Assembly (NCBI GenBank): GCA_018657495.1
Contig: JABHXA010000005.1
Coordinates: forward strand, 104,749-136,748
DNA length: 32,000 bases
From: Fidelibacterota bacterium
Lineage (GTDB): Bacteria > Fidelibacterota > Marinisomatia > SCGC-AAA003-L08 > JACNLC01
Direction: 5' to 3'
Shown here one piece after another: positions 14,223-15,540 of this stretch; the first letter of the stretch is position 1, and each line of letters begins with the position of its first letter. The notes beneath the pieces were generated by a model. That model was not told where the DNA came from and searched no databases. It saw only the letters and a program-made list of their open reading frames with translations. Made by a program: the position numbers and the translations under genes.

Positions 14223-14486
14223 TTAACAGGTAGCTTCTTTTTGTCCCGTTAAAGCTGCTCTGAACATGGCAGCGGCGCATCCAACACCGCTTTCCACTGC
14301 GATCGCTCCTTCACTGCAATTCAATCGACAGGCTCCGCATTCCATACAGGCAACGGGATTATCCAAATGGGCTTTTTTATTTATCATGGTAAACACCGCA
14401 TGGGGACAAACAATGGTACATAGTCGGCATCCGTTACACAATTCAGGATTATATGTGAGTGTATTTACTTGAGAGACATTAAACAT
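14223..14486 (-). CDS. hgcB: HgcB, 2x[4Fe-4S] ferredoxin of the mercury-methylation pair
   Basis: 87 aa. Two CX2CX2CX3C motifs (CNGCRLCTIVCP, CMECGACRLNCS). The HgcB signature C(M/I)ECGA is at nt 14331-14348. Conserved GVGC cysteine (aa 70). C-terminal Cys (…KEATC). A GGAGG lies 8 nt upstream of the ATG. The gene starts 13 nt after the hgcA stop. Confidence 0.9.
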   Translation of the reverse strand: MFNVSQVNTLTYNPELCNGCRLCTIVCPHAVFTMINKKAHLDNPVACMECGACRLNCSEGAIAVESGVGCAAAMFRAALTGQKEATC

Positions 14487-14499
14487 ATTTCATACCTCC

Positions 14500-15540
14500 C
14501 TAAACCAGATTGCTAACAATTAACACGGTGGTTCCAAAGACAGCCATGACTGCCATGACAGGTCCATAAATAAAAATCTCTTTTCTTACACCGCTCCGTG
14601 AGGCAAATGTGGATGAACCGGTGAAATTTAATGCCAGAAAAGCGGTAATCGATGTCCATAGCAAAAATGACCCAATTATATGACCCAACATTCTCCATAA
14701 TTCAACATCAGGATTATCAACAAAAATCAAATACCCAAAAACTGCCGCAATCAGTCCGCCCAATTGGAATCCCTTGGCGGTAAAATCCTTTGTAGGCAGC
14801 CATGGCAATAGCAATGGAAATAAAACTAATCCAGAAAATATTGCCGCCATCCAGCCACCGATAGTATAATGATTTACCAGATCTCCAAAAAAGAATAGAG
14901 AGAGCAAAATCATCACAATCATAAATGGGGATCGAAATTCAACTGGGATTAATACCGCCCGATCAAAAATACCAAAACGGACTCTCCGTAATTCAGCATC
15001 CACTTTTCGGTTATTAAGATAATCAGGGAGATCGCTTGCCTTTACCGGACCAAACTCGACTTTGAATCCTGTTCGTTCTTTCACTTCAAATGAAATTATA
15101 CCTGGTGCACCTAATTGCGGTAATATGACTTTGTGATGTTTGACATGTTCGTGAAGTTTAACAGCATCGATCCTGTGTACGAGTTCATCGGTTCCAAATG
15201 TCCCTTTACCAGCGGCACACCAAACATTAATTCCCTGTGTATCCAGAACCAGTATAAAACAATCGATTCCTTTTAGGGCGGAGCGCAAAGCATCAAAACT
15301 TAGTGTGTAATTGGCGGTGACAAAAACCTTAGAATTTTCATCAGGCATTCCTAAAGTATATAATCCTGGAATAACGAGGTGTTCATTCCGCCTCAAACCA
15401 ATACGAGCCTTAAAATGATCAAGATGATTTTTAAAGGTTAGAGTGCTTTCGGTTTTTTTAATAACAGCATCATCAGGATGAAAAGTTGTAGTTGAATCCT
15501 TCTCATTTGAACAACATGAATTTGTGGATTTGCAGTCCAA
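14500..15540 (-). CDS. hgcA: HgcA, corrinoid-binding membrane protein of the mercury-methylation pair
   Basis: 346 aa. The cap-helix signature NVWCAAGKG (aa 105-113, nt 15202-15228) matches N(V/I)WCA(A/G)GK. The C-terminal half has ~5 hydrophobic helices (aa ~204-344). The TTG start is the only start after an in-frame TAG and is preceded by GGGAG 5 nt upstream. Confidence 0.9.
   Translation of the reverse strand: MDCKSTNSCCSNEKDSTTTFHPDDAVIKKTESTLTFKNHLDHFKARIGLRRNEHLVIPGLYTLGMPDENSKVFVTANYTLSFDALRSALKGIDCFILVLDTQGINVWCAAGKGTFGTDELVHRIDAVKLHEHVKHHKVILPQLGAPGIISFEVKERTGFKVEFGPVKASDLPDYLNNRKVDAELRRVRFGIFDRAVLIPVEFRSPFMIVMILLSLFFFGDLVNHYTIGGWMAAIFSGLVLFPLLLPWLPTKDFTAKGFQLGGLIAAVFGYLIFVDNPDVELWRMLGHIIGSFLLWTSITAFLALNFTGSSTFASRSGVRKEIFIYGPVMAVMAVFGTTVLIVSNLV

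Follow-up and report, generated by a model that had tools for sequence, protein, structure and literature searches.

A 32,000-nucleotide stretch of Fidelibacterota DNA (contig JABHXA010000005.1; hereafter the window) carries, side by side on its reverse strand, the genes of a mercury methylation system: hgcA, coding for a corrinoid protein with a membrane anchor, and hgcB, coding for a small ferredoxin. The stop codon of hgcA ends at position 14500, and after a spacer of 13 nt hgcB follows directly downstream as an open reading frame (ORF) of its own, i.e., the pair is unfused. The first-pass annotation, made from the letters alone, had described a complete hgcA-hgcB pair here. Its coordinates for the larger ORF and for the NVWCAAGKG motif were exact, and the 87-residue ferredoxin 13 nt downstream behind a GGAGG, with its CMECGA motif and GVGC cysteine, can all be read in the sequence. 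The features of the locus and of its surroundings are collected in Table 1.

Table 1. Genes, motifs and neighboring features of the hgcAB locus (window positions; aa, amino acids)
Feature	Position	Strand	Description and basis
hgcA	14500-15540	-	346-aa corrinoid methyltransferase with membrane anchor; TTG start; profile, Pfam and Foldseek matches
Shine-Dalgarno GGGAG	15546-15550	-	5 nt 5' of the hgcA TTG; read from sequence
HgcA N-terminal tail, aa 1-26	15463-15540	-	Cys3, Cys9 and Cys10 (CysX5CysCys); sequence and variants
HgcA corrinoid-binding domain, aa ~27-180	15001-15462	-	Predicted; Foldseek, CFeSP (corrinoid iron-sulfur protein) chains, root mean square deviation 2.7-3.2 over ~130 columns
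Cap-helix motif NVWCAAGKG, aa 105-113	15202-15228	-	Read from sequence
HgcA Cys108	15217-15219	-	Predicted lower axial cobalt ligand
HgcA transmembrane domain, aa ~195-346	14503-14958	-	Five helices; Kyte-Doolittle scan and AlphaFold2
Shine-Dalgarno GGAGG	14495-14499	-	8 nt 5' of the hgcB ATG, within the hgcA-hgcB spacer; read from sequence
hgcB	14223-14486	-	87-aa 2x[4Fe-4S] ferredoxin; ATG at 14486
HgcB first cluster motif	14406-14438	-	C17-x2-C20-x2-C23-x3-C27(P); read from sequence
HgcB second cluster motif	14316-14348	-	C47-x2-C50-x2-C53-x3-C57(S), holding CMECGA (14331-14348); read from sequence
HgcB Cys70 (GVGC)	14277-14279	-	Counterpart of ND132 Cys73; spacing and alignment
HgcB Cys87	14226-14228	-	Final residue, sole tail cysteine (…EATC); sequence and alignment
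Dockerin gene	12866-14179	+	437 aa, between hgcB and phoH
ORF6N remnant (probable)	15724-16029	+	101 aa, just upstream of hgcA; profile positions 42-86 of 86
Hairpin	15754-15777		Perfect, 10 bp, GC-rich; in the 5' part of the ORF6N ORF
T9SS sorting domain and dockerin protein	15-1574		Type IX secretion system (T9SS); domain match
P-type ATPase	2668-5100		PF12156 FixI/CcoI-type N-terminal domain; domain match
Rrf2-family regulator gene, then hemerythrin-domain gene	5125-6141	-	
tyrA, as listed	27693-28430	+	Prephenate dehydrogenase
aroA, as listed	28372-29667	+	EPSP (5-enolpyruvylshikimate-3-phosphate) synthase

The family membership of both proteins was examined with curated equivalog profiles of NCBIfam, each applied with its own cutoff, a check that the first-pass annotation had itself proposed and from which its reading of a complete pair emerged intact. 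HgcA scores 401.2 bits against NF040863 HgcA_corrinoid (cutoff, 275; E value, 3e-120), and the match spans residues 27 to 345, corresponding to profile positions 1 to 324 of 325 and thus to nearly the full length of the model. Against NF043039, the model of the nonmethylating HgcAB-like fusion, it reaches 201.6 bits, under the cutoff of 285, and fails. Of the 120 best HgcA homologs, 119 carry exactly the signature NVWCAAGK, and N105, V106, W107, C108, A109, G111 and K112 are invariant across an alignment of 77 homologs. Behind the corrinoid-binding domain, a Kyte-Doolittle hydropathy scan shows five stretches of hydrophobic residues in the part from residue ~203 to 345, and the AlphaFold2 model (input of 77 homologs; mean predicted local distance difference test score [pLDDT], 75) places helices at residues 205 to 217, 224 to 247, 253 to 274, 280 to 309 and 315 to 345, so both approaches return the roughly five C-terminal transmembrane helices that had been proposed. 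In the Foldseek search of the PDB library, the top match to HgcA is 9a0b_A (37% identity; E value, 4e-19), followed by CFeSP chains; entry 9a0b is the HgcAB model of Pseudodesulfovibrio mercurii ND132 from Cook et al. 2020 (PMC7305189).

HgcB reaches 101.2 bits against NF040864 HgcB_ferredoxin (cutoff, 99; E value, 2e-29), is matched by the Fer4 families of Pfam, and is 67 to 77% identical to proteins named HgcB by NCBI from Chloroflexota, Anaerolineae and Aminicenantales. The cluster cysteines of both motifs, together with Cys70 and Cys87, are invariant in 18 HgcB homologs, and Cys70 sits 13 residues past the last cluster cysteine, a spacing equal to that between Cys60 and Cys73 of ND132. Most relatives carry a second cysteine in the tail (…TCDC, …TCC), while the window protein ends at Cys87. 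Profiles, motif, topology and gene adjacency agree in supporting hgcA and hgcB as a pair that is complete and unfused; family membership, catalytic residues, membrane topology and operon structure are all direct observations.

The host could be named by exact-sequence look-up, in which HgcB, GlgC, PhoH, thiolase, NusB and acyl-CoA dehydrogenase each match proteins from NCBI metagenome-assembled genomes (MAGs) of Candidatus Marinimicrobia/Neomarinimicrobiota (records MBT3251519 to MBT3251531 and three parallel sets). The host is an uncultured marine member of the Marinimicrobia (phylum Neomarinimicrobiota/Fidelibacterota), a heterotroph of the Fibrobacteres-Chlorobi-Bacteroidetes (FCB) group, which gives a name to the proteolytic, possibly microaerotolerant FCB-group heterotroph anticipated from the gene content. 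The HgcA sequence is present on more than 200 public contigs, 123 of them from NCBI, Logan and ENA and 85 from JGI; the JGI contigs reach 202 kb, and their HgcA is identical save for the notation of the residue at the TTG start. Two independent ENA contigs of 184 kb and 72 kb show zero mismatches to the window across 21.0 and 20.3 kb, respectively.

The HgcA cluster also includes variants at 90 to 93% identity. Two of these (the sister lineage L083, 90% identical, and the JGI contig with variant P0125) share with the window the order S8-S8-glgC-glgA-LRR (leucine-rich repeat)-hgcA-hgcB-phoH-thiolase-3HCDH (3-hydroxyacyl-CoA dehydrogenase)-ACAD (acyl-CoA dehydrogenase). In both sister lineages phoH follows hgcB after ~0.4 to 0.5 kb, and the dockerin gene that stands between these two genes is found in the window lineage only. 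With L083 as the reference, Nei-Gojobori estimates of the ratio of nonsynonymous to synonymous divergence (dN/dS) come to 0.070 (hgcA) and 0.028 (hgcB), compared with 0.03 to 0.14 in eleven flanking genes, and dS is 0.54 to 0.65 for hgcAB and 0.54 to 1.24 for the flanks. The pair is thus under strong purifying selection, with a constraint as tight as that on its housekeeping neighbors. Since its dS lies within the range of the flanks and its dN/dS is low, we conclude that hgcAB has been inherited with the chromosome and has codiverged with the flanking genes, i.e., it resides there stably.

We consider it likely that hgcA and hgcB form an operon of two genes with which an uncultured marine Marinimicrobia bacterium methylates mercury; the biochemical steps are assigned by homology to ND132. 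By this analogy, the cytoplasmic domain of HgcA (residues ~27 to 180) would bind a cobalamin to which Cys108 contributes the lower axial thiolate ligand, and the five helices at residues ~203 to 345 would anchor the protein in the membrane. HgcB would be translated from the hgcA transcript, 13 nt downstream, and its two [4Fe-4S] clusters would reduce the cobalt of the corrinoid on HgcA to Co(I). Co(I) would then take a methyl group, with S-adenosylmethionine (SAM) as the donor if the sole purified enzyme is a guide, and methyl-Co(III) would give this group to thiol-held Hg(II), whereupon methylmercury would be released; Cys70 and the tail residue Cys87 of HgcB are the likely Hg carriers. In purified HgcAB, SAM is the methyl donor and the cobalt is ligated by the thiolate of the conserved cysteine (Zheng et al. 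2024, PMC11588087), and the tail cysteines and Cys73 of HgcB have been suggested to ferry both substrate and product (Cook et al. 2020, PMC7305189). All residues required by the scheme are present in the window pair.

Several points weigh against this reading. Window HgcA is at most 60% identical to anything beyond its own cluster, and its identity to ND132 HgcA is only 37% in the Foldseek alignment. HgcB passes NF040864 by just 2 bits. In the AlphaFold2 model the cap region (residues 107 to 112) has pLDDT values below 50 and no helix is drawn, so the cap-helix fold is not confirmed by the model, which is unusable as confirmation of a Cys-on geometry; such poor confidence is unsurprising for a model computed without the cofactor. 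The HgcB tail holds one cysteine versus two in ND132. Mutagenesis of ND132 HgcB showed that Cys73 is essential and that either Cys94 or Cys95 alone is enough, while loss of both lowers the activity by 95%; in the accompanying survey at least one downstream cysteine occurs in 1,943 of 2,432 HgcB sequences and at least two in 1,317 (Cook et al. 2020, PMC7305189), so a tail with a single cysteine belongs to a minority, but to a common one. By the ND132 rules, then, a single tail cysteine should be adequate. Finally, there is no hgcAB-bearing Marinimicrobia isolate and methylation is unproven (PMC8163782, PMC10083202), and a heterologous test of Marinimicrobia hgcAB was not found in the literature searched. 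The earlier remark that methylation has rarely or never been shown in a carrier of this kind still holds by the account of Lin et al. 2021 (PMC8163782).

A rival reading is that an intact HgcAB orthologue performs no meaningful mercury methylation in this host, either because it serves another corrinoid-dependent methyl transfer or because it is inactive at the low oxygen of the habitat. The physiological role of HgcAB is not established, Pyrococcus furiosus has a fused HgcAB that carries the motif and does not methylate (PMC10083202), and methylation by Marinimicrobia is so far without experimental demonstration (PMC8163782). Sensitivity of HgcAB to oxygen has been reported (PMC11588087), and the host has oxygen-related genes, namely, those of the FixI/CcoI-type ATPase and of hemerythrin. 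On the other hand, the window pair is unfused and fails the fusion profile NF043039, the residues needed in the ND132 mutagenesis are all present, and selection on hgcAB matches that on the housekeeping neighbors in strength. To our knowledge, unfused hgcAB has predicted methylation in the isolates tested so far. With hgcAB transcripts reported in situ as well (PMC8163782), we judge a nonmethylating orthologue to be unlikely.

Far less probable, to the point of being negligible, is that the larger protein belongs to the CFeSP large subunits (AcsC/CdhE). Such an identity could be suspected from Pfam, where the generic CdhD domain is the only match (residues 58 to 174, 53 bits), from the NCBI MAG records, which say carbon monoxide dehydrogenase, and from the PDB, in which CFeSP large subunits are the sole sequence relatives. 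Profile scores and domain architecture together refute it. Against the AcsC/CdhE model PRK04165, HgcA gains 80.6 bits where 306 are required, and it covers profile positions 324 to 447 only; likewise, residues 56 to 178 alone resemble the last ~120 residues of the CFeSP subunits, while the N-terminal [4Fe-4S] and TIM-barrel parts are missing and a five-helix membrane domain is found instead. In the phmmer alignments Cys108 pairs with residue 374 of the Carboxydothermus hydrogenoformans CFeSP (2H9A), which lies inside 'VLTAW', and with the equivalent Thr of 4DJD. Residue 374 is presumably the CFeSP cap-helix residue beneath the cobalt (CFeSP structure, Parks et al. 2013), so the alignment places Cys108 on the cap helix. 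Besides, no acs or cdh gene is found among the genes of the window.

The wider distribution of hgcAB bears on its origin in this lineage. The best of 8,000 scored HgcA homologs outside the 90%-identity cluster is 60% identical, and in a neighbor-joining tree of 77 homologs the Marinimicrobia cluster forms a separate long branch; this tree has no support values, reference methylators or fused clade and is used only for the statement that the branch is isolated. A scan of genome contigs for HgcA returned no relative, the patterns being exact query peptides and the genome of this lineage seemingly lying outside the collection; PhoH served as the query of a second scan. Among eight more distant Neomarinimicrobiota species, none has hgcAB within up to 10 kb on the far side of phoH, and the same eight retain all or most of the phoH-thiolase-3HCDH-ACAD-ELFV-nusB block at 44 to 81% amino acid identity. 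The lack of hgcAB next to phoH in these species and its flank-like GC content fit an old single acquisition in the ancestor of the clade, as Lin et al. proposed. A second hgcAB lineage of the phylum occurs in the closed 3.11-Mb genome of a 'Fidelibacterota bacterium' (CP070787.1, GCA_020346745.1), where adjacent hgcA and hgcB lie at 6001 to 7280 of the extracted locus (L084). Its HgcA (P0093) is 54% identical to window HgcA, its HgcB tail reads …VTCGE, and its neighborhood is unrelated, with a two-component system, an EamA transporter and transglutaminase-like proteins; hgcAB thus occurs in more than a single sublineage of this phylum.

That hgcAB is foreign to the contig, through misassembly or very recent transfer, has next to no probability. 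In favor of it, no relative of HgcA beyond its own cluster exceeds 60% identity, the literature sets Marinimicrobia HgcA near archaeal sequences (PMC10083202), a mobile-element-type ORF6N fragment lies just upstream, and distant Marinimicrobia with the phoH-thiolase-nusB block have no hgcAB next to phoH. Against it, the same junctions recur in many assemblies on contigs of up to 184 to 364 kb, two contigs are identical to the window across 20 to 21 kb, the pair occupies the same position in two diverged lineages with flank-like dS, and its GC content (hgcA, 0.40; hgcB, 0.44) is close to the 0.38 of the window. A recent transfer is rejected on these grounds, since GC and dS both match the flanks; an ancient transfer into the clade ancestor is compatible with the data, and a recent transfer or a chimera is not.

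The start of HgcA deserves separate treatment, as residues 1 to 26 lie beyond the NF040863 profile and beyond the gene call in the NCBI Marinimicrobia MAGs, which is 320 amino acids long (cluster member MBT3251523.1). This N-terminal tail begins MDCKSTNSCCSNEKD… and contains …NSCCSNEKD…. The TTG start and the GGGAG Shine-Dalgarno sequence are conserved in the 90%-identical L083, and the DNA further 5' decays with indels. It is likely that the TTG at 15540 is the true hgcA start, giving the full length of 346 residues. Cys3, Cys9 and Cys10 are kept in every HgcA variant of 90 to 93% identity, and residues 1 to 21 are predicted by AlphaFold2 to be disordered (pLDDT below 50). A vicinal Cys-Cys in the N-terminal tail is found in 24 of the 119 best hits that bear the cap-helix motif, typically as GSCCSSSG and mostly in Methanoperedens-like archaeal HgcA. 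No description of an N-terminal cysteine tail of HgcA was found in the literature searched.

It is tempting to ask whether this tail is a functional thiol arm by which HgcA would capture or pass on Hg(II) or methylmercury; we hold this only as a tentative idea. Equally tentatively, such an arm might be a counterpart of the cysteine tail at the C terminus of HgcB and of the cysteine pairs of Mer proteins. If so, the acquisition of substrate would in some lineages involve HgcA as well. A compensation of the single-cysteine HgcB tail by the N-terminal Cys-Cys was also considered and dropped, as four hgcA-hgcB pairs, a small sample, show no complementarity: three Methanoperedens-like HgcAs with the N-terminal Cys-Cys are paired with multicysteine HgcB tails (TCGCDGSCS, TCGSDGSCS and TCGGSSCC), and the Fidelibacterota HgcA P0093, which has no N-terminal Cys-Cys, is paired with a single-cysteine tail (VTCGE).

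In public records, the NCBI labels of the pair (MBT3251523.1/MBT3251524.1 and parallels) are 'carbon monoxide dehydrogenase' and '4Fe-4S binding protein'; the label of HgcB at JGI is 'NAD-dependent dihydropyrimidine dehydrogenase PreA subunit.' On contig L001 the gene caller skipped hgcB and called a 68-residue ORF on the opposite strand instead.

As for regulation, a search for known RNAs upstream of hgcA, such as a cobalamin riboswitch, found none, as no Rfam family reaches its gathering score anywhere in the window. No ArsR-type regulator gene adjoins hgcAB in the window, and promoter-like sites in the scan are at chance level (10 found versus 8.6 expected). The terminator scan returned a sole strong hairpin, on the opposite strand within the ORF6N fragment, with the perfect stem CTGTCCCCCGC TGG CGGGGGACAG. 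ORF6N domains are typical of antirepressor-like proteins of phages and mobile elements. The 101-residue ORF upstream of hgcA holds the C-terminal half of this domain and is probably a gene remnant; it varies across sister lineages, one having a 120-residue ORF6N gene and L083 having no ORF6N call.

The remaining genes of the window, whose GC content is 38.4%, bear out by domain matches the context outlined at first pass, i.e., a T9SS sorting domain, a CcoI/FixI-type ATPase, glycogen metabolism and amino acid/short-acyl-CoA catabolism. They include glgA, glgC, an ELFV dehydrogenase, acyl-CoA dehydrogenase, 3-hydroxyacyl-CoA dehydrogenase and thiolase, as well as nusB, aroA, aroE, aroC, two S8 subtilases, a hemerythrin, and proteins with T9SS and dockerin domains. 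The Rrf2-family regulator and hemerythrin genes, which may form an oxygen- or NO/iron-sensing unit, are conserved beside nusB in L004, the nearest Neomarinimicrobiota species, with amino acid identities of 59% and 43%. The tyrA and aroA ORFs overlap by 59 nt as listed; the true start of aroA is probably further downstream, since the ORF exactly as listed is absent from the protein collection searched.

The occurrence of hgcAB in Marinimicrobia has been known since 2021, and the window confirms it; the novelty of the pair in such a host that the first-pass annotation implied does not stand, as Lin et al. 2021 (ISME J, PMC8163782) and Lin et al. 2023 (PMC10083202) precede it. In 15 MAGs from Saanich Inlet (3.1 to 3.4 Mb, 37.2 to 37.4% GC), Lin et al. 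2021 found one identical hgcA with hgcB directly downstream, forming a monophyletic clade. This gene was the most transcribed hgcA in the inlet, and Marinimicrobia were, judged by hgc transcription, the most active putative methylator group; reads occurred in 58 BioProjects, and the lineage was described as cosmopolitan. The same study presented homology models with the cap-helix cysteine, five transmembrane helices, the ferredoxin motifs and the cysteine tail, and it discussed oxygen tolerance along with the aa3- and cbb3-type oxidases co-occurring with hgcAB (PMC8163782). Later, Marinimicrobia HgcA was placed in an archaeal cluster, with 56% identity to a Theionarchaea sequence, and lateral acquisition was inferred (Lin et al. 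2023, PMC10083202). Because the identical protein stands on 85 JGI contigs, the window gene is very likely identical to that of Lin et al. 2021.

Low-oxygen seawater, in which methylmercury is formed and passes into fish, harbors abundant Marinimicrobia, and their hgcAB has been recognized since 2021 as a leading candidate for producing methylmercury in the ocean beyond strictly anoxic settings. To this the window adds confirmation by curated profiles, a stable chromosomal residence under purifying selection that marks the pair as no recent passenger, and a full-length HgcA with its likely true start for a pair that public records mislabel and whose HgcA they truncate at the N terminus. The selection and synteny evidence, the corrected start and the conserved cysteine tail of HgcA are the new elements, and we regard them as modest additions.

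Among the known systems, the HgcAB of the Saanich Inlet Marinimicrobia is the closest: it agrees with the window pair in phylum, in hgcB lying directly downstream, in the cap-helix cysteine, in the five transmembrane helices and in the cysteine tail of HgcB (PMC8163782). The lineage is cosmopolitan, and the GC content is ~37% in the MAGs versus 38.4% in the window. From Saanich Inlet one and the same hgcA is reported for 15 MAGs; the public collection also has the variants of 90 to 93% identity in the same gene context. With the experimentally characterized pair of ND132 (Pseudodesulfovibrio mercurii, Desulfovibrio desulfuricans) the window shares the two-gene layout, NVWCAAGK, five transmembrane helices, two CxxCxxCxxxC motifs and a C-terminal cysteine; Cys93 of ND132 HgcA corresponds to Cys108, and Cys73 of its HgcB corresponds to Cys70, with 13-residue spacing in both. 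The differences lie in the HgcB tail (the Cys94/Cys95 pair in ND132, one cysteine in the window), in the end of the second cluster motif (CP in ND132, CS in the window), and in the extra N-terminal CysX5CysCys tail of window HgcA; no ArsR-type gene stands beside the window pair.

The CFeSP large subunit (AcsC/CdhE; 2H9A, 4DJD) has a homologous corrinoid-binding domain (27 to 28% identity over ~130 residues, root mean square deviation of ~2.7 to 3.2), but it carries [4Fe-4S] and TIM-barrel domains, both of which HgcA lacks, and HgcA has a membrane domain and a cysteine at the position of residue 374. The Methanoperedens-like archaeal HgcAs (P0017, P0065 and relatives) are 52 to 56% identical to window HgcA and share with it a vicinal-cysteine motif in the disordered N-terminal tail, which reads SCCS in the archaea. 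The window cluster falls outside their clade on its separate long branch in the quick neighbor-joining tree without support values, and the archaeal pairs differ in their multicysteine HgcB tails and in their neighbors. Of three such loci (L085, 72 to 1496; L086, 55 to 1496; L087, 1193 to 1504), two have SAM-dependent methyltransferase and nitroreductase genes directly upstream of hgcA, and in one an ArsR-type HTH_5 regulator overlaps the hgcA start, whereas next to Marinimicrobia hgcAB none of these genes is found.

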